From the NCBI GenBank assembly GCA_903840375.1, contig CAIMFR010000008.1, forward strand, positions 1 to 39,176: a stretch of DNA of 39,176 nucleotides. The letters are read 5' to 3'. Below, piece by piece: positions 1,667 through 12,562 of the stretch; position 1 is the stretch's first letter, and each line of letters starts with the position of its first letter. The notes under the pieces were generated by a model. That model saw only the letters and a program-made list of their open reading frames with translations, made no database searches and was not told the origin of the DNA. The position numbers were made by a program, and so were the translations under genes. Source of the DNA: Candidatus Adlerbacteria bacterium. GTDB taxonomy: Bacteria > Patescibacteriota > Minisyncoccia > Phycocordibacterales > SBAW01.

Positions 1667-2788
1667 ATGTACAATTTATGCATGTCTATGATAAAAGAAC
1701 TAATCTCTAATTTCTGGCAGAAATATGAGCGGCCTTTATTACTCGTCGCGGCTATTGGCGGCTTTATTTTTGACCTATTTCTCGCAAAACGGCCGGACAG
1801 TATTGCAGACAATATTCTGCTCGTGTCGTATCTCTTCATCGTCGGAGCGCTCATTGTTCTGCTCAACATTCATGAAAAGAATGTGACTGCGGAGGGTGGT
1901 GCGATGATCGCCCCGATGTGGACGCTTCTCATCATGCAGTTCTGTTTCGGCGGTCTGGCGAACAATCTTCTCATTCTCTACGGCAAAAGCGGAACGCTCG
2001 GCGGCGACTTGGTATTCATCGGATTCCTTGCGGCATTCGCATTGGGGAATGAATATCTGAAAACTAAATACGGGCAGTTGCGGTTTAACGTTGCGGTCTA
2101 TTATTTCCTATTGCTGACATATCTAGTCATGGCGGTGCCGACGTTTGTCATGCATACGATAGGCACGCAAGTGTTTCTGATAAGTGGTGCGGCGAGCCTA
2201 GTTTTTATCGCGCTTTTTCTGCGTATGCTTTATCGAGTGGTTTTGCGTGGGCAGCCAGGCGCTCACAGAAAATTATATGAAGTGTCCGGAATCGTGCTCC
2301 TCATCTTCGCACTGTTCAACGTGCTCTACTTCACCAACATAATTCCGCCGGTTCCGCTCTCACTGAAATCCATCGGGATCTATCATACAGTCACGCGCAC
2401 CGCGGATGGAAATTATTCTGCCACACTTGAGCCGTCTCCGTGGTATATCTTCTGGCGCGATACGAGCGCCACGTACACCTGGGCTACGGGCGAGAGTGCG
2501 ACGTGCTTCAGCGCCGTGTTCGCACCTGCGGAGCTTTTCACTCCGATATATCAGCGATGGGAATATTTCTATCCGACGACCGGTGATTGGATAACCGTCG
2601 CGCATGTGCAATTCCCGATAAGCGGTGGTCGCGCGCAAGGGTATCGCGGCTTCACGACGAAGACAAAATTGGAAGCCGGCCAGTGGCGCTGCGATGTGGA
2701 AACGGCAAGCGGGCAGCTCATCGGCAGAATATCATTCGATGTGGTGGAGAGCAGCTCCACGCCCACGTTGTCCAGCGTGACACTGTAA
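1667..2788 (+). CDS. polytopic membrane protein with a C-terminal soluble domain (DUF2914-like, recalled from memory)
   Basis: 373-aa ORF with about 7 hydrophobic helices. The C-terminal domain reads ...YQRWEY...ISGGRAQGYRGFTTKTKLEAGQWRCDVETASGQLIGRISFDV. The start is ambiguous (ATG at 1667, 1682 or 1688). Confidence 0.75.
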   Translation: MYNLCMSMIKELISNFWQKYERPLLLVAAIGGFIFDLFLAKRPDSIADNILLVSYLFIVGALIVLLNIHEKNVTAEGGAMIAPMWTLLIMQFCFGGLANNLLILYGKSGTLGGDLVFIGFLAAFALGNEYLKTKYGQLRFNVAVYYFLLLTYLVMAVPTFVMHTIGTQVFLISGAASLVFIALFLRMLYRVVLRGQPGAHRKLYEVSGIVLLIFALFNVLYFTNIIPPVPLSLKSIGIYHTVTRTADGNYSATLEPSPWYIFWRDTSATYTWATGESATCFSAVFAPAELFTPIYQRWEYFYPTTGDWITVAHVQFPISGGRAQGYRGFTTKTKLEAGQWRCDVETASGQLIGRISFDVVESSSTPTLSSVTL

Positions 2789-2828
2789 GTCGCTTTTTCT
2801 GCGTCGCTCTTTCTGTTACTGTGTGTAT

Positions 2829-4712
2829 ATGATCCGAGATGATATTGAACAGGCGGTTAAGAAGGCGCTCGAGAGTTTTGGTGTTGGCGACACTTCATTT
2901 GTCGTGGAGCGACCGGGGGACATGGCTCACGGGGATTATTCCACGAACGCGGCTTTGATCGCCGGAAAGATGCTGAAGAAAAATCCTCGCGAGGTGGCGG
3001 AGGAGTTGGCAAAGATTCTGCGTTTGCAAATGGTCTGGCCTAGCCTTGCCGACCGGGCGATTGCCGGCGAGCTGGGAGAACCGAGGACCTTTGCAAATGC
3101 AGAATCTTTGCCAGCCTTGTCATTCATTGAAAAAACAGAAGTTGCCGGCGCTGGGTTCATCAATTTTACGCTTTCGCACGAGGCACGAGTCGCGGAAGTT
3201 TCGCGCGCTGCGACCGACGACGCTTGGGGTAAAAATAATTTATATGACGGGAAAAAGGTGATGGTCGAATATACTGACCCGAATCCTTTCAAGGCTTTTC
3301 ATATCGGACACTTGATGAGCAATGCCATCGGCGAGTCCATCGCTCGCGTGTTAGAGGTATCTGGTGCAAAAGTTGTGAGTGCGTGCTGGCAGGGTGACGT
3401 CGGGCTGCATGTGGCGAAAGCTCTGTGGGGAATACAGCGCGATGTCGCACATCTTCCGCAAGAGAGCAATTCACTCGAGGTAAAGTCTGCATTTCTCGGC
3501 GGAGCGTATGTTGCCGGCGCAACGGCGTATGACGACAATGCGGACGCGAAGGCGGAGATCGACGCGATAAATAAAAAAGTGTTCGACCGCTCCGACGCCG
3601 AGTTGAACGATTTGTATGCGAAGGGTCGTGCGTGGAGTTTGGAACATTTCGAGGAGATCTACAAAACACTTGGAACGCATTTCGACTATTATTTTTTTGA
3701 AGGTACCGAGGGCCGCGACGGCGAGAAGATCGTGCGCGAATTTTTGCAGAAAGGTGTGTTCGAAGAAAGCGACGGTGCGATAGTCTTTCCGGGAGAAAAG
3801 TACGGTTTGCACACTCGCGTGTTTATCACATCGCGCGGCTTGCCGACGTACGAAGCGAAAGAGCTTGGATTAAATAAGGCGAAGTTTGCCGCGGAGCCGG
3901 GCCTCGATGAGTCTATCATCGTCACTGCGAGCGAGCAGAATGATTATTTCACGGTCGCGCTCAAGGCGATGTCGATGATATTCCCGGACATTGCCCGCAA
4001 GACTAAACATGTATCGCACGGTATGATGCGTTTCGCTGCCGGAAAAATGTCGTCGCGCAGAGGTAATGTCATCACCGGCGAATCGCTACTTGCAGACTTG
4101 GCAGATGCCGCAAAAGAAAAAATGAAGGATAGGAAGTTGGCGGATGCGGATGGTGTTGCGCAGGCGATAGCGGTCGGAGCTATCAAATATGCCGTGCTCA
4201 AACAGGGGAGCGGCAAGGATATTATTTTCGATTCACAGAAAGCATTGTCGCTCGAGGGCGACTCCGGGCCATATCTACAGTATGCACACGTGCGTGCATT
4301 GTCTCTGATAAAAATGGCGAAAGATGCTGGGATCGAGACAGACACCTCCGAGCAGTCGGTATCTGCCGAAAAATGTGCGCTCCGGGCCGCTAGGCCAAGT
4401 CCTACCCATTTTTCAACAGGTACCGACTACTCGGAGGAAGATCCCTCTGTTTCTGCCGCCGCTCGCCACATCCTCGAACGCACCCTCCTTCATTTCCCGG
4501 AAATACTCGAACGCGCCGCTAAAGAACTCGAACCGCACCATATAACTACATATCTCACTGAACTCGCGTCAGCATTTAATGCATGGTACGCGGCAGAGCG
4601 AATTATTGGTGGCGAACATCCGCAATACGGACTTCTCTTGGCAGAAGCGGTGGAAAAAACTTTACTGCAAGGTTTAAACACTCTTGGTATTCCGGTCCCG
4701 GAGGAAATGTAG
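2829..4712 (+). CDS. argS: arginyl-tRNA synthetase, carrying two in-frame foldback insertions
   Basis: N-terminal Add-1-like region (HGDYSTNAAL, AGAGFINF), class I signature FHIGHLMS, MSSRRGN, and C-terminal anticodon-binding region (GPYLQYAHVR, EPHHITTYL). I prefer ATG 2829 (MIRDD...) over GTG 2823. Confidence 0.93.
   Translation: MIRDDIEQAVKKALESFGVGDTSFVVERPGDMAHGDYSTNAALIAGKMLKKNPREVAEELAKILRLQMVWPSLADRAIAGELGEPRTFANAESLPALSFIEKTEVAGAGFINFTLSHEARVAEVSRAATDDAWGKNNLYDGKKVMVEYTDPNPFKAFHIGHLMSNAIGESIARVLEVSGAKVVSACWQGDVGLHVAKALWGIQRDVAHLPQESNSLEVKSAFLGGAYVAGATAYDDNADAKAEIDAINKKVFDRSDAELNDLYAKGRAWSLEHFEEIYKTLGTHFDYYFFEGTEGRDGEKIVREFLQKGVFEESDGAIVFPGEKYGLHTRVFITSRGLPTYEAKELGLNKAKFAAEPGLDESIIVTASEQNDYFTVALKAMSMIFPDIARKTKHVSHGMMRFAAGKMSSRRGNVITGESLLADLADAAKEKMKDRKLADADGVAQAIAVGAIKYAVLKQGSGKDIIFDSQKALSLEGDSGPYLQYAHVRALSLIKMAKDAGIETDTSEQSVSAEKCALRAARPSPTHFSTGTDYSEEDPSVSAAARHILERTLLHFPEILERAAKELEPHHITTYLTELASAFNAWYAAERIIGGEHPQYGLLLAEAVEKTLLQGLNTLGIPVPEEM
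3005..3115 (+). repeat. in-frame foldback element A inside argS (111 nt = 37 codons)
   Basis: The 26-nt arms 3005-3030 and 3090-3115 are complementary at 24 of 26 positions, and both mismatches would be G-U pairs in sense RNA. The core 3031-3089 contains TGGTCTGGC, GCCGACCG and GAGAACCGAGGACC, all identical to element B. An inner hairpin spans 3040-3075. Confidence 0.8.
4345..4437. repeat. in-frame foldback element C inside argS (93 nt = 31 codons)
   Basis: The arms 4345-4375 and 4407-4437 are complementary except for 4 positions: one T-G at 4362/4420 and three C-A at 4353/4429, 4366/4416 and 4367/4415. The central 31 nt contain GGCC-GCTA-GGCC. The reverse complement shares TGGCCTAGC with element A. 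Confidence 0.7.
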
Positions 4713-4717
4713 ACGTA

Positions 4718-4746
4718 TTGACAAAAAATGTATTTCGTTTAATGTA
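4718..4746 (+). promoter_or_regulatory. candidate sigma70-type promoter for the small ORF / ileS leader
   Basis: TTGACA at 4718-4723, then a 16-nt spacer, then a weak -10 TAATGT at 4740-4745. Confidence 0.3.
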
Positions 4747-4780
4747 TTCCTGAACGTACAACATACATCAGGAGGTTTTC

Positions 4781-4945
4781 ATGTTTCGTAGGCAGACCGT
4801 TTTCCACAGCATGCACGACGGCAGGGTTGCGGTGAAAAGTATTTCTCTCCAAGTGCAGGCGCGCGATGGAGAGGTCGTGGAAGTTATCGAGGTCCGTGCG
4901 CATATCTCTATGGAGAACACAACTAATCAAATTGCCCGCAGGTAG
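4781..4945 (+). CDS. small hypothetical protein (54 aa), or a leader ORF upstream of ileS
   Basis: GGAGG at 4771-4775 lies 5 nt before ATG 4781. Translation: MFRRQTVFHSMHDGRVAVKSISLQVQARDGEVVEVIEVRAHISMENTTNQIARR. The stop TAG 4943-4945 lies inside the terminator stem. The ORF is under 60 aa, so it is absent from the supplied track. Confidence 0.5.
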   Translation: MFRRQTVFHSMHDGRVAVKSISLQVQARDGEVVEVIEVRAHISMENTTNQIARR

Positions 4946-4973
4946 GTCTTAGGACCACCTGCGGTATTTTTTT
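4936..4973 (+). terminator. intrinsic terminator (or attenuator) 39 nt upstream of the ileS start
   Basis: A 12-bp stem CCGCAGGT(A)GGTC / GACCACCTGCGG with loop TTAG, followed by TATTTTTTT. Confidence 0.8.
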
Positions 4974-5012
4974 ATATGGCAGCGAGCCGGATTTGTGGTA
5001 CATTCTTCATAT

Positions 5013-8000
5013 ATGGCAGAACCTGAGAAAGTTGTTGAAAAAGGCGAGGTAGCCTTGCGCGAGGAGGAGACTCTGGCCTTTTGGATAAAAGAGAAGATCT
5101 TCGAGAAGTCTTTGACTAAAGATGCACCTAAGGGTGATTTTGTCTTCTACGATGGGCCGCCTTTCGCTACAGGTTTGCCGCACACCGGTTCTCTGTTGGC
5201 ATCGGTCATCAAAGATGTTGTGCCGCGCTACAAGACGATGCGCGGTTTTCGCGTGCCACGCAAATGGGGGTGGGATTGCCACGGTTTGCCGGTTGAGAGT
5301 CTCATAGAAAAGCAGCTCAATCTCAAAACTAAAAAAGACATCGAGAAGATCGGCGTCGACACATTTAACGAAGCTGCGCGCGCGTCGGTGCTTAAGTTCG
5401 TCGACGATTGGGAAAAATATGTCAGCCGCGTCGGTCGCTGGGTTGATTTCAAAAATTCATATAAGACGATGGACAACTCGTACATCGAGAGCGTGTGGTG
5501 GACGTTGAAACGGCTCAACGGGAAAAAACTTTTGTACGAAGGCAAGAAAGTTTTGATGTACTGCGTACACTGCGAGACACCTCTTGCCAAGGCGGAGATC
5601 GCGATGGACAACACATACAAGATGATCACTGAGGAAGCTGTCACGGTGAAGTTCAAGATGAAAAATCAGGAGAAGCGCGGCATTCCGGCGAACGCATACA
5701 TTCTAGCGTGGACGACGACGCCATGGACTTTGCCCGGCAACGTCGCACTTGCGGTCAACCCCACTATCCCGTATGTGTTGGTGCAGAAAGGTGATGAATA
5801 TTTGATGGTGGCGAAGGAGAGGGTGAGCGCTGTGTTTGGTGGCGGCGGCGGCGTGGAAAAACTTCCTTCTGAAAATGGTCTGGCGTCAAGCCGACCGTCT
5901 TCGGTCGGTGTTGGCGAGAACCGAGGACCTTTTCAGAAGGAAGTTTTCCCCGACGTCGTGTCCGACGTCGTGTCCGAATTCCTCGGCAAAGAACTCATTG
6001 GCGCGGAGTATGAGCCTCTTTATACGGTGCCGGCAATCGCGAACACGAAGGGCAAAAAATACGTTGTCGTCGGAGCGGATTTCGTATCGACAGAAGACGG
6101 CACTGGGGTTGTACATATCGCGCCGATGTATGGCGAAGACGACTTTGCTGTTGGTAAAAAAGAAGGGTTGCCGATGGTGCAGCTCCTCTTACCGAACGGC
6201 AATTACACCGACCTCGTGCCGGAATTTCTGCGCGGACTATATCTCAAAGCCGGAAGCAAGTTTATCAAAGAAGACTTGGAGAAACGCGGTATTTTGTTCG
6301 GACGCGCGCCGCATTCACACTCATATCCGCACTGCTACCGCTGTGGCACACCGCTCATCTACAATGCGGTTGTGTCGTGGTTTATCAACATCCAGAAAGT
6401 GAAGAGCCGTATGCTCGCCGAGAATGAAAAGATCACGTGGGTACCGGAACATCTCAAGCACGGGCGCTTCAAACACAATGTCGAAACTGCGCCGGACTGG
6501 ACCATTTCGCGCAACCGTTTTTGGGCATCGCCGTTGCCTATATGGAAAGAGAAGGGTGGTGACGGGTTGATGGTCGTCGGCTCGCTCGACGAACTGCTTG
6601 TAAAGACGAAACATTCCGGCAATACATATTTTGTCATGCGGCATGGCGAGGCGCAGGCGAACCTGAAAGATATTTTTGAAACGAAAGGTGATGTGACCAA
6701 TCATCTCACAGAGACAGGTAAGGAACAGGCTCGCACAAGCGCTGAGTGGTTGAAGAAACATGGGCCGATCGATCTTATCGTACATTCGCCGTTGGTGCGT
6801 ACACGCGAGACTGCTTATATTGCGCAAAAAGTTCTCGGGCTCACTGACTCCGCGATGATGGTAGATGAAAGGTTGCGTGAGATGGGTGTCGGTATCCTCG
6901 AAGGCAAAACATTCGATGAGTGGGATAAATATTTCGACGCACCGCTCGAGCAGTTCACCAAGCGTGCGATCGAGGGCGCGGAAACATTCACCGACATTCG
7001 TCGCCGCGTGGGCGCATTTCTATTCGAAATAGACAAACGATACTCCGGCAAAAATATTCTTATCGTGACGCACGAATGTCCGGGTTGGCTTCTCAATGCT
7101 GTTGCGTCGCGACAGAGTATTGGAGAGTGTATGGAAGATCGCGTACAGCACGGCGGATTTCTTACTCGCGGCCAAGTGAAGCCTCTTTCATTCGCATCCT
7201 TCCCTCATAATGCAAACTTCGAGCTCGACCTCCATCGCCCGTACATTGATGCAGTAACACTTTTTGACAAAGCGGGGCGCGCGTACGAACGCATTCCGGA
7301 AGTTATAGACTGCTGGGTGGAGTCCGGCGCGATGCCGTTCGCCTCTGCTGGTTATCCGAAGAACAAAAAAACGATCAATCCTATTCGCTGGTTCGGACTC
7401 GCACCGAAAGGGTATCCGGGCGACTTTATTGCGGAGTACATCGCACAGACGCGCACGTGGTTCTATTATATGCACGCGCTCGGCATTCTGCTTTTTAACA
7501 AACGAGCATTCAACACTGTGGTCTCGACGGGTACGTTGCTTGCGTCTGATGGTGCGAAGATATCGAAGTCGAAAGGGAATTATACCGACCCGATGCTTCT
7601 CATGGATCGCTTCGGTGCGGACGCATTCAGGTTTCATTTGATGGGCAGCGTCGTGATGCAGGCGGAGGATCTCCAGTTCAAAGACGAAGATGTTCGCGAG
7701 GTGCACAACCGCGTTGTCGGCATGATCTGGAATTCATACAAGTTTTATGAATTATACAAAGCGAGTTACAGCGGAAAGGTGCGGAGTTCGGACAGTCCTC
7801 ATGTGCTCGATCGGTGGATTCGCGCACGGCTCGCCGACGTTGCGTTACAGACCACACAGGGGATGGATGCGTTCAATACGCCGAGCGTGTGCCGCGTCTT
7901 GCGCGAGTTCGTCGATGATTATTCGACTTGGTACTTGCGCCGTTCGCGCGCGCGGGTGAAGACTGACACGGAGGACAAGCAGTTCGCACTTGCGACGCAG

Positions 8001-8630
8001 CACGATGTGCTGATCGCGTTGGCAAAACTTACAGCTCCGCTGATGCCGTTCCTCGCGGAAAATGTGTACCGCGGCGTCGGCGGAGACATGGAGAGTGTTC
8101 ATCTCGATGTGTGGCCGGACTCGTGGGAGTTCCTCGCCGATGCGGTATTGCTTGAGAAAATGAAGCATACGCGCGCCACCGTGTCGCAAGCGCTCGACTT
8201 GCGTGAACGTGCGAATATAAAGGTTCGCCAGCCGCTCGCGGCGCTTTACCTGCCGCGCACTATTGACCTAGCAAGCGAGTTGGAATTGCTCGCGCTCATA
8301 AAAGATGAAGTAAATATAAAAAATATAGAGTTCACCGATGATGCGGATATGCGCCTCGACACTAGTATCACTCCGGAGTTGAAAGAGGAGGGAACGGTGC
8401 GCGACATCGTCCGTCAGATCCAAGACTTCCGCAAAAAAGAAAAACTCACCATAGATGCGCGTCCGTCGATCACCATAACCACCAACAAAGAAGGCGAAGC
8501 ATTTTTCAAAAAACAAAAAGAAGTCCTAATAAAAGAAACCGGCTTGGCAAAACTGTCGGTCAACGTTTCTTCGGAAGAAGCCACAGCACAAAGTCTGCAA
8601 TTCCCGGTTGTGATCGCTTTGGAGAAGTAA
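5013..8630 (+). CDS. ileS: isoleucyl-tRNA synthetase (type 2 / eukaryote-like) with an inserted histidine-phosphatase domain and a foldback insertion
   Basis: Motifs seen: PPFATGLPHTGS (HIGH position), WGWDCHGLPVE, TTTPWTLPGN, DWTISRNRFWASPLPIW, DLHRPYID, DCWVESGAMP, KISKSKGN (KMSKS), and a C-terminal anticodon-binding region. ATG 5013 is the likely start; GTG 4995 is possible. Confidence 0.93.
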   Translation: MAEPEKVVEKGEVALREEETLAFWIKEKIFEKSLTKDAPKGDFVFYDGPPFATGLPHTGSLLASVIKDVVPRYKTMRGFRVPRKWGWDCHGLPVESLIEKQLNLKTKKDIEKIGVDTFNEAARASVLKFVDDWEKYVSRVGRWVDFKNSYKTMDNSYIESVWWTLKRLNGKKLLYEGKKVLMYCVHCETPLAKAEIAMDNTYKMITEEAVTVKFKMKNQEKRGIPANAYILAWTTTPWTLPGNVALAVNPTIPYVLVQKGDEYLMVAKERVSAVFGGGGGVEKLPSENGLASSRPSSVGVGENRGPFQKEVFPDVVSDVVSEFLGKELIGAEYEPLYTVPAIANTKGKKYVVVGADFVSTEDGTGVVHIAPMYGEDDFAVGKKEGLPMVQLLLPNGNYTDLVPEFLRGLYLKAGSKFIKEDLEKRGILFGRAPHSHSYPHCYRCGTPLIYNAVVSWFINIQKVKSRMLAENEKITWVPEHLKHGRFKHNVETAPDWTISRNRFWASPLPIWKEKGGDGLMVVGSLDELLVKTKHSGNTYFVMRHGEAQANLKDIFETKGDVTNHLTETGKEQARTSAEWLKKHGPIDLIVHSPLVRTRETAYIAQKVLGLTDSAMMVDERLREMGVGILEGKTFDEWDKYFDAPLEQFTKRAIEGAETFTDIRRRVGAFLFEIDKRYSGKNILIVTHECPGWLLNAVASRQSIGECMEDRVQHGGFLTRGQVKPLSFASFPHNANFELDLHRPYIDAVTLFDKAGRAYERIPEVIDCWVESGAMPFASAGYPKNKKTINPIRWFGLAPKGYPGDFIAEYIAQTRTWFYYMHALGILLFNKRAFNTVVSTGTLLASDGAKISKSKGNYTDPMLLMDRFGADAFRFHLMGSVVMQAEDLQFKDEDVREVHNRVVGMIWNSYKFYELYKASYSGKVRSSDSPHVLDRWIRARLADVALQTTQGMDAFNTPSVCRVLREFVDDYSTWYLRRSRARVKTDTEDKQFALATQHDVLIALAKLTAPLMPFLAENVYRGVGGDMESVHLDVWPDSWEFLADAVLLEKMKHTRATVSQALDLRERANIKVRQPLAALYLPRTIDLASELELLALIKDEVNIKNIEFTDDADMRLDTSITPELKEEGTVRDIVRQIQDFRKKEKLTIDARPSITITTNKEGEAFFKKQKEVLIKETGLAKLSVNVSSEEATAQSLQFPVVIALEK
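5855..5949 (+). repeat. in-frame foldback element B inside the ileS editing-domain region
   Basis: A perfect 18-nt inverted repeat, 5858-5875 and 5930-5947 (90 nt = 30 codons), is extended by GG/CC after a bulged A. The core 5876-5929 contains TGGTCTGGC, GCCGACCG and GAGAACCGAGGACC, identical to element A. An inner 13-bp hairpin with a UCUU loop spans 5885-5915. Confidence 0.8.
5951..5974 (+). repeat. perfect 12-nt tandem duplication (CGACGTCGTGTC x2) in ileS
   Basis: Read directly from the sequence. It encodes DVVS-DVVS and begins 2-4 nt after element B ends. Confidence 0.9.
6621..7215 (+). other. histidine-phosphatase (phosphoglycerate-mutase-like, branch 1) domain embedded in IleRS
   Basis: The segment reads YFVMRHGEAQAN ... 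HSPLVRTRETA ... ERLREMGVGILEG ... ILIVTHECPG. These are the RHG motif, second Arg, acid/Glu region and distal His of the superfamily. IleRS motifs PLPIW (upstream) and DLHRPYID (downstream) flank it in the same frame. Confidence 0.85.
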
Positions 8631-12528: not shown

Positions 12529-12562
12529 ATCCACTAATTTCGCATATGCGAAATTAGTGGAT
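12529..12562. promoter_or_regulatory. perfect 34-nt palindrome upstream of glyQS (candidate operator or structure)
   Basis: ATCCACTAATTTCGCAT|ATGCGAAATTAGTGGAT has 17-nt arms with no spacer and no mismatch. The left arm together with the two preceding T's (12527-12535) reads TTATCCACT, matching a DnaA box at 8 of 9 positions. Confidence 0.5.

Follow-up and report, generated by a model that had tools for sequence, protein, structure and literature searches.

The 39,176-nt stretch of DNA analysed here (the window; contig CAIMFR010000008.1 of a Candidatus Adlerbacteria bacterium, read on the forward strand) carries two copies, A and B, of a hairpin-forming repeat, inserted in frame in the genes for arginyl-tRNA synthetase (argS) and isoleucyl-tRNA synthetase (ileS), respectively. 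Both are probably members of a large family of small, non-autonomous mobile elements, translated hairpin repeats that are specific to the Patescibacteria, or candidate phyla radiation (CPR), and chiefly to the Paceibacterota. The tiny genomes of these bacteria are thought to be almost repeat-free. The family is apparently undescribed: full-text literature searches, whose incomplete coverage leaves a prior description possible, found no account of such elements in CPR genomes, in agreement with the initial annotation of this DNA, which knew of none. The features of the window on which the argument is built are as follows (L numbers denote DNA loci and P numbers ArgRS orthologues, here and below).

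2823–4712, + strand: host gene argS (arginyl-tRNA synthetase, ArgRS), open through copy A; homologues with Pfam PF03485, PF00750 and PF05746.
3005–3030, + strand: left arm of copy A, coding for ELAKILRLQ of ArgRS and pairing with 3090–3115 at 24 of 26 positions.
3031–3089, + strand: core of copy A, with the conserved 5' strand (A)TGGTCTGGCC, a variable inner hairpin at 3040–3075 and the conserved 3' strand GGAGAACCGAGGACC.
3090–3115, + strand: right arm of copy A, coding for FANAESLPA, which is not in orthologues, and reverse-complementary to the left arm.
4995–8630, + strand: host gene ileS (isoleucyl-tRNA synthetase, IleRS), open through copy B; orthologues adjoining argS in L129, L130 and L132 with PF00133.
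5855–5875, + strand: left arm of copy B, in ileS, placed by inverted repeat and fold.
5876–5929, + strand: core of copy B, TGGTCTGGC ... GCCGACCG-TCTT-CGGTCGG ... GAGAACCGAGGACC, in a frame different from that of copy A.
5930–5950, + strand: right arm of copy B, placed by inverted repeat and fold.

Copy A is a hairpin of 111 nt within argS, and copy B occupies approximately positions 5855–5950 of ileS. Direct reading of the sequence bore out the arms of copy A and their 59-nt core as initially annotated, and an inverted-repeat search recovered the same pair as 3007–3030/3090–3113 (24 nt, 96%). ATGGTCTGGC has exactly two matches in the window, at 3030 and 5875, as does GAGAACCGAGGACC, at 3076 and 5916, all on the + strand, and GCCGACCG sits between them in both copies; exact matching thus confirms three blocks shared with ileS in order and orientation. 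The RNA folds of the two regions reach −72.1 kcal/mol for copy A and −59.0 kcal/mol for copy B (z = −8.65 and −8.39, respectively, relative to dinucleotide shuffles). A covariance model built from 67 members of the family found exactly two copies in the window, A at 61.4 bits and B at 52.5 bits, with the next match at 14 bits. As had been claimed, argS reads straight through the 111-nt element (...ELAKILRLQMVWPSLADRAIAGELGEPRTFANAESLPAL...), and ileS reads through copy B in another frame (...SENGLASSRPSSVGVGENRGPFQKEVF...). The shared core encodes MVWP...EPRTF in argS and NGLA...ENRGPF in ileS, so that the conserved entity is the DNA and not the peptide; AIAGELGEPR and TFANAESLPALSFIEK are among the peptides encoded by element copies. 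Repeats also flank copy B: a GGC run 5' of its left arm codes for GGGGG, and a 12-nt tandem repeat, CCGACGTCGTGT x 2.3, immediately 3' of its right arm (5950–5977) codes for PDVVSDVVSE.

The anatomy of the element was derived from an alignment of 67 short-core copies and the covariance model. The element measures approximately 60–115 nt and centers on a conserved two-stranded motif, 5'-R-GUCUGG-(CC)...(GG)-AGAN-CC-GA-GGAC-Y-3', in which pairs form between GUC and GAC, between U and G and between GG and CC, so that the 3' strand is left with two bulges, GA and AGAN. The pair closing the core covaries as R-Y (GC 42, AU 18). A few recurrent types account for the variable inner hairpin, CCGAGC-GNRA-GCGAGG (with G·A pairs in tandem) and CYGGG-loop-CCCRG being examples; 'mini' copies have a 9-nt loop in its place (GGTCTGG-N9-CCGAGGACC). 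Outside the core lies a proximal stem of about 8–14 bp, often with tandem G·A pairs, whose sequence is typical of a subfamily (e.g. GAAUG/CUGAR or YGAGAAAAU/UUUUCGAAR), followed by a distal, or outer, stem of about 8 bp or more, whose sequence is specific to each copy. In the stems, 87.9% of alignment cells are paired, compared with 71.3% in shuffles, and displacing the 3' partners by at least one column brings the paired fraction down to 31–60%. Covariation, for which the initial annotation had sought a test, is present in the stems, with a score, reached by none of 500 shuffles, of 0.429 against 0.148 in shuffles. Rfam gave no match to the window at the gathering score, and at E values up to 10 only generic, miRNA-type hairpin matches far below threshold. 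The hairpin, hammerhead, kink-turn, loop-E and bulge-helix-bulge motifs were compared by eye, and none fits the core. At the base of the stem, approximately 20–21 nt from the core, a purine-rich G-R-A-(R) motif occurs on both sides (L013, L017, L043, L046, L091 and others) in about one-third of copies and one-tenth of control positions, a roughly 3-fold enrichment; it could extend the stem by tandem G·A pairs or reflect a target preference.

Scanning one genome per species with the pattern GTCTGG-N(10-40)-GAGANCCGAGGACYT yielded at least 120 loci, so that further copies, whose absence would have undone the initial idea, are numerous. Among the 120 matches listed, 111 have a core flanked by an inverted repeat of 17–44 nt (mode 20–22), and nine lack arms altogether and resemble chance matches; the two groups are sharply divided. 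Record titles, taken for 80 of the matches listed, name 74 Patescibacteria metagenome-assembled genomes (MAGs) and six non-CPR sources, all six among the nine armless matches. The titled hosts are Paceibacterota, Nomura-, Kaiser-, Adler- and Ryanbacteria, Minisyncoccia and MAGs titled Saccharibacteria. When viral contigs were scanned, five matches emerged, mostly chance and armless, and a phage origin was rejected. Applied to 736 kb of fetched loci, the covariance model added approximately ten variant copies, mini-cores included.

By position, 118 copies divide into 29 sense and 39 antisense within long open frames, 33 outside any long frame and 17 that are ambiguous. Thus 68 copies are genic and 39 of these run antisense to the host gene, which rules out a tie of the family to the sense strand. 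Across host genes the core is read in three frames and both orientations, and in all 68 cases the host frame stays open through the element; the conserved motif itself, read directly, holds no stop codon in six frames. Most intergenic copies start 2–20 nt past the end of the upstream reading frame. Certain protein loops are occupied recurrently, in either orientation and in different genomes, among them those of ArgRS, UvrA, UvrB, UvrD, LigA, RecJ, Tgt, GatA, PrmC, MnmA, an HD-domain enzyme and a large multi-site protein. Intergenic spacers and the surface loops of housekeeping proteins are where the elements land; within genes they persist only where the frame stays open. Other hairpins occur at the same places. 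L056 (~307–415) and L031 (~7250–7400) have hairpins with unrelated centers in the protein loops that hold the GTCTGG element in relatives (the L064 and L102 sites), and L040 has a mini-core, GTCCGG-ATTT-CCGAGGTCC, at the site of a full element in L084; several hairpin families seem to target, or to survive in, the same protein loops.

Comparison of relatives shows that these elements are mobile at the DNA level, now or recently. Insertion-bearing ArgRS proteins are interspersed among insertion-free relatives, and presence or absence also differs between relatives at sites in UvrA, UvrB, Tgt, RecJ, XerD, MnmA and the HD-domain enzyme. Copies within one genome have inner hairpins of 30–33 nt with no or one difference and outer arms that are unrelated; in L075 and L080, for instance, the 33-nt inner hairpins differ at one position and the outer arms are unlike. 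Copies taken to be young, with perfect arms, occur in L044, L099, L049 and L131, among others. The core can also invert between its arms. L036 and L071, in UvrA proteins approximately 86% identical, have homologous arms at the same site and cores in opposite orientation, with the internal-loop motif moving together with the flipped core. The cores of the ArgRS pair P0056 and P0066 (89% identical) are likewise opposed, as are those of L013 and L051. Opposite cores in such close orthologues mean that orientation is not a stable property of the site.

Mismatches within the arms reveal which strand folds. Counted on the GTCTGG strand, G·U outnumbers A·C by 82 to 22 (58 to 18 in the outer arms alone) and G·A outnumbers C·U by 184 to 9, and the direction of this bias is identical in sense and antisense genic copies. 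The preserved fold is that of the GTCTGG strand: because the bias follows this strand whatever the direction of the host gene, it is on the element's own strand, and not in the host mRNA, that the fold has been kept. The two exceptions in the arms of copy A are U·G and G·U on the + strand, so the earlier remark that they are G-U compatible in the sense transcript is right for this copy and fails as a rule, since G·U follows the strand of the element and not the transcript. Such a strand-specific fold is indicative of single-stranded DNA or of RNA transcribed from the element's own strand.

The ArgRS site offers the closest view of what an insertion adds to a protein. Homologues of the window ArgRS place its host in the Paceibacterota/Parcubacteria (CPR), although the closest entry of the protein database is only 57–59% identical to it. 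Of 120 aligned orthologues, about 95 have 10–13 residues and about 25 have 24–41 in the segment that separates the REVAE helix from the VEKIEVAG strand, several of the latter showing peptide signatures of the core in other frames or from the opposite strand. At the site of copy A the window protein exceeds insertion-free orthologues and a solved ArgRS structure by 26–31 residues, close to the 30 or so extra residues first estimated. DNA fetched for two of the long-segment orthologues contains the same bipartite core, with a compensatory change from G-C to A-T at the core base, and also revealed another copy, in UvrD. As modelled by AlphaFold, the window ArgRS has a mean confidence score (pLDDT) of 91, with extended low confidence only at residues ~71–90 and ~511–540 (10-residue block means of ~48–57). 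The first of these segments corresponds to the core and right arm of copy A, the core-encoded residues scoring approximately 50. Left-arm codons fall within a confident helix of the model (residues 53–66), aligned to the native helix of orthologues and of the solved structure PDB 6ao8, which has no counterpart of residues 65–90. By this model and structure, the inserted segments are surface excursions of ArgRS, and from the open frames alone we infer that genic copies are translated, as disordered loops.

The second segment of low confidence coincides with another hairpin in argS. Located at 4345–4437 on the + strand, it spans 93 nt, or 31 codons, its center TGCGCTCCGGGCCGCTAGGCCAAGTCCTACC lying between arms of about 32 nt; the fold of 4310–4480 has an energy of −71.9 kcal/mol. 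The hairpin lies in ArgRS residues ~500–548, which are unaligned to 6ao8, with pLDDT block means of 48–57 at 511–540. Its core differs from that of the GTCTGG family, and membership was rejected. The only related hairpin seen, in L070 (near 3383, minus strand), shares GGCCGCTAGGCCAAG with it, and the two may represent a second family.

Only the inner part of each arm is shared between copies. Between non-orthologous copies with near-identical inner hairpins, arm identity is 0.61–0.66 over the 8 nt beside the core, 0.36–0.38 over the next 6 nt and 0.25–0.29 over nucleotides 14–20, with a background of 0.27–0.30. The outer arms of pairs from the same genome are no more alike than those of other pairs (p = 0.40), and an 11-mer is shared in only 4 of 6903 pairs, these being local duplicates or orthologues; arms carried over from donor copies were rejected on both counts. 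The initial annotation held that arms differ between copies, which is correct for the outer stem and incorrect for the 8–14 nt of arm adjoining the core, which are shared within subfamilies; copies A and B also show a weak overall similarity of their arms (score 13, null −1 ± 4.3, p ~0.003).

It had further been suggested that the left arm is native sequence and the right arm an inverted copy of the target. At the ArgRS site this appears to be so. The insertion falls short of the hairpin's length by roughly one arm, with an excess of 60 nt for a hairpin of 80 nt in P0116/L129 and of 84–93 nt for the 111-nt hairpin of the window, and in the insertion-free loci L130 and L135 the upstream arm has as its aligned counterpart the native LKEKLS-type helix of the clade. 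For argS copy A, then, the left arm appears to be native and the right arm an extra, inverted copy. The closest comparison of a filled with an empty site is that of P0044 with P0050 (91% identical) and with P0028 (86%); it is consistent with native flank, followed by [proximal stem - core - proximal stem] and an inverted copy of approximately 11 nt of flank, although it is not clean, P0050 being locally divergent. The suggestion does not extend to every site. In MnmA the native arm is the downstream one, and at other sites almost the whole hairpin is extra, so that an upstream or left arm that is always native was rejected.

We propose that the mobile unit would consist of the core and the proximal stem, and that the distal stem would be made at or after insertion, when the nascent strand folds back onto the core hairpin and an inverted copy of approximately 8–25 nt of the adjoining flank is made. 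Quasi-palindromes are well known to become perfect palindromes through such snap-back synthesis, and template-switch chemistry of this kind can invert a segment lying between inverted repeats. Copying of the flank in this way would account both for outer arms that differ between copies and for the native left arm and extra right arm in argS. The strand-specific fold suggests a single-stranded DNA intermediate, which some putative enzyme would recognize. The pathway as a whole, in which the core inserts through a single-stranded hairpin intermediate, hairpin-primed synthesis duplicates the target flank in inverted and not in direct form, the core later flips and the folded GTCTGG strand is the ligand of a putative CPR-wide protein, would be undescribed for bacterial transposons; we put it forward tentatively and regard it, in this complete form, as rather doubtful.

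Several observations weigh against this reading of the family as mobile elements with copied outer stems. At the XerD, UvrA, L107 and L100 sites and at ileS copy B nearly the whole hairpin is extra, with at most 5–8 nt of arm native; relative to the IleRS of L001 and L029, copy B adds the whole hairpin and approximately 16 nt more. The main alternative for the outer stems is neutral compensatory drift of old arms, which could also make them copy-specific. No empty site at near-identical sequence, from which the exact junctions and an inverted duplication could be read, was found. Neither the window nor ~1 Mb of fetched loci yielded a gene for a transposase, a reverse transcriptase or an HUH/Y1 enzyme, a weak test at approximately 8 kb per genome. 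Lastly, the sample was ascertained by an exact core pattern, which overstates the conservation of the core. Other searches were also negative: direct repeats at stem bases, as expected of a target-site duplication, are no commoner than in shuffled left/right pairings; within each locus no second match to the arm sequence was found that could mark it as copied from nearby; Pfam identified no transposase among 20 window proteins; and tblastn with the IS200 and IS608 TnpA proteins gave no credible match in ~1 Mb of loci, at ~8 kb per genome.

The strongest competitor, although we judge it unlikely, is a signal of service to the host, in structured RNA or single-stranded DNA, such as the binding site of a CPR-specific protein or a priming or processing signal, which is kept by selection rather than being selfish. 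The core is invariant at approximately 20 positions across many genera, its internal loops with tandem G·A pairs are conserved, mismatch tolerance is strand-specific, both copies at the same ArgRS site of proteins 57% identical have an intact core, and intergenic copies lie directly 3' of genes. Yet the conservation of the core is inflated by ascertainment, no Rfam family matches, and the majority of copies lie in coding sequence, in either orientation and at sites that vary between close relatives, where a signal would have no evident reason to interrupt essential enzymes. No less conceivable than the full pathway set out above is that the strand-specific hairpin has been co-opted as a host signal. 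It is quite improbable that the hairpins arose locally, by template-switch palindrome formation in repair-poor genomes, with the shared core a convergent or selected loop and no transposition. Hairpins with unrelated centers in the same protein loops of relatives (L056, L031) and the second, different hairpin of argS speak for such an origin, but more than 100 loci, in different genes, frames and orientations, have an identical bipartite motif, over 20 nt long and alike in its bulges, which is best explained by common descent of the core.

Even less credible is removal of the hairpin from mRNA in the manner of an intron, for example by a double-strand-specific nuclease and a ligase, so that it never reaches the protein. 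Stems of at least 20 bp are plausible substrates of RNase III, and unusual intervening sequences in rRNA are known from CPR genomes. All 68 genic copies nevertheless keep the frame open, in both orientations, and antisense copies would present a different and weaker RNA; preservation of the fold on the element's own strand argues against this process and against any role in the host mRNA. Moreover, no flanking pair of reading frames was followed up as a split gene, Rfam detected no ribozyme or intron family, and excision of the whole hairpin from argS would delete the part of the native helix that the left arm encodes. Chance similarity or an assembly artefact, the latter having been named at the outset as a possible undoing of the idea, is refuted for practical purposes: nothing speaks for it beyond the general caution due with metagenome-assembled genomes, and fold z-scores are near −8.5, exact blocks recur and the same architecture is found in more than 100 records with different isolate and assembly names.

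A family of mobile hairpin repeats, the explanation that we favor, is in behavior closest to the Rickettsia palindromic elements (RPE-1 and relatives, RPEs). These too are small palindromic repeats of a reduced-genome bacterial lineage, found in frame in genes, essential ones included, read through and tolerated at protein surfaces, and no mobilizing enzyme has been identified for either. The initial comparison with RPEs, as frame-keeping, nucleotide-level repeats tolerated in essential genes, is supported in this respect. The palindromic repeat of ~100–150 bp in many copies that typifies RPEs has its equivalent in elements of 60–115 nt at no fewer than 111 arm-bearing loci, and, as far as reading frames tell, insertion with read-through is common to both, 68 of 118 copies lying in long open frames and argS and ileS remaining open. 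Unlike RPEs, which we set apart here by their description and not by consensus sequence, the CPR element is conserved in the center and proximal stem only, has copy-specific outer stems, occurs in both orientations at the same site through core inversion and tolerates mismatches strand-specifically. RPE copies can be aligned over their whole length; outer-arm identity in the CPR element (0.25–0.29) equals background (0.27–0.30). With a host in another phylum, the Patescibacteria, membership of the RPEs by descent is unlikely.

Two groups of transposon-related repeats share other traits. Repetitive extragenic palindromes and the mosaic elements built from them (REP/BIME), with their RAYT transposases of the IS200/IS605 Y1 type, and palindrome-associated transposable elements resemble the CPR element in that the fold of the hairpin matters on one strand, as the mismatch bias on the GTCTGG strand indicates here, and in that target sites are not duplicated; both traits are compatible with a single-stranded DNA intermediate. 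REPs, however, are intergenic palindromes of 20–40 nt with a conserved 5' GTAG, uniform within a genome, whereas the CPR elements measure 60–115 nt, lack GTAG, are mostly genic and have variable outer stems. Bacterial MITEs, or miniature inverted-repeat transposable elements (Correia, ERIC, Nezha and others), are likewise repeats that are short and non-autonomous, whose ends are inverted repeats and which can form hairpins, and some are occasionally genic. MITEs have flanking direct target-site duplications, of which we found no excess over shuffled pairings, and conserved terminal inverted repeats that match a parent insertion sequence. In the CPR element the ends are inverted repeats whose terminal parts are the least conserved, no parent insertion sequence is known, and no transposase was found in the window and fetched loci, which are partial genomes.

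Template switching at quasi-palindromes (snap-back synthesis), like de novo genesis of hairpins by template switching (PMC10710096), creates, in a single event, a perfect inverted copy of adjoining sequence beside an existing hairpin, and is the step by which, in our proposal, outer stems are formed and cores inverted. Being a mutational process and not an element, it leaves the spread of a conserved core unexplained. Coding palindromes have been described in mitochondrial genes of Nematomorpha (PMC6649704), where long inverted repeats also lie within translated protein-coding genes. There, both arms code for conserved protein and no core is shared, in contrast to the CPR element, which is an insertion with a conserved center.

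The window is a block of housekeeping genes, encoding SHMT, a DUF2914 protein, ArgRS, IleRS, RecO, a class II synthetase, MetRS, TatD, FtsK and others. The order DUF2914 - argS - ileS (1667–8630) is retained in several relatives (L002 and L129–L135 were examined) with ArgRS proteins approximately 50–60% identical; in L134 and L135, genes other than ileS lie downstream of argS. The IleRS encoded at 4995–8630 has 1211 residues and an inserted histidine-phosphatase-like domain (YFVMRHGEAQAN...). In the IleRS orthologues adjoining argS in L129, L130 and L132, PF00300 (His_Phos_1) is flanked by two PF00133 matches, which indicates that the fusion of IleRS with His_Phos is conserved within the clade. 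Two other inverted repeats were observed. A perfect 34-nt palindrome (ATCCACTAATTTCGCAT/ATGCGAAATTAGTGGAT) occupies the intergenic positions 12529–12562, directly following a terminator-like hairpin and closely followed by the class II tRNA synthetase gene. The gene for an AI-2E family transporter contains an inverted repeat of 17 nt with 94% complementarity and its halves 86 nt apart (14782–14798/14885–14901), which has no core of the GTCTGG family.

The repeat family riddles the most conserved enzymes of the CPR, among them aminoacyl-tRNA synthetases, UvrABD, LigA, RecJ, Tgt, GatA and XerD. It may explain some of the unexplained length variation, or 'insertions', in CPR proteins, and it can mislead alignments, phylogenies and structure predictions. 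The same copies are markers for strain and lineage tracing, and form a natural experiment on how proteins tolerate random loop insertions. The mechanism could prove more novel still: a conserved center, self-complementary outer stems peculiar to each copy, an invertible core and a fold on one strand together point to a mode of mobilization and a protein partner that would both be new.

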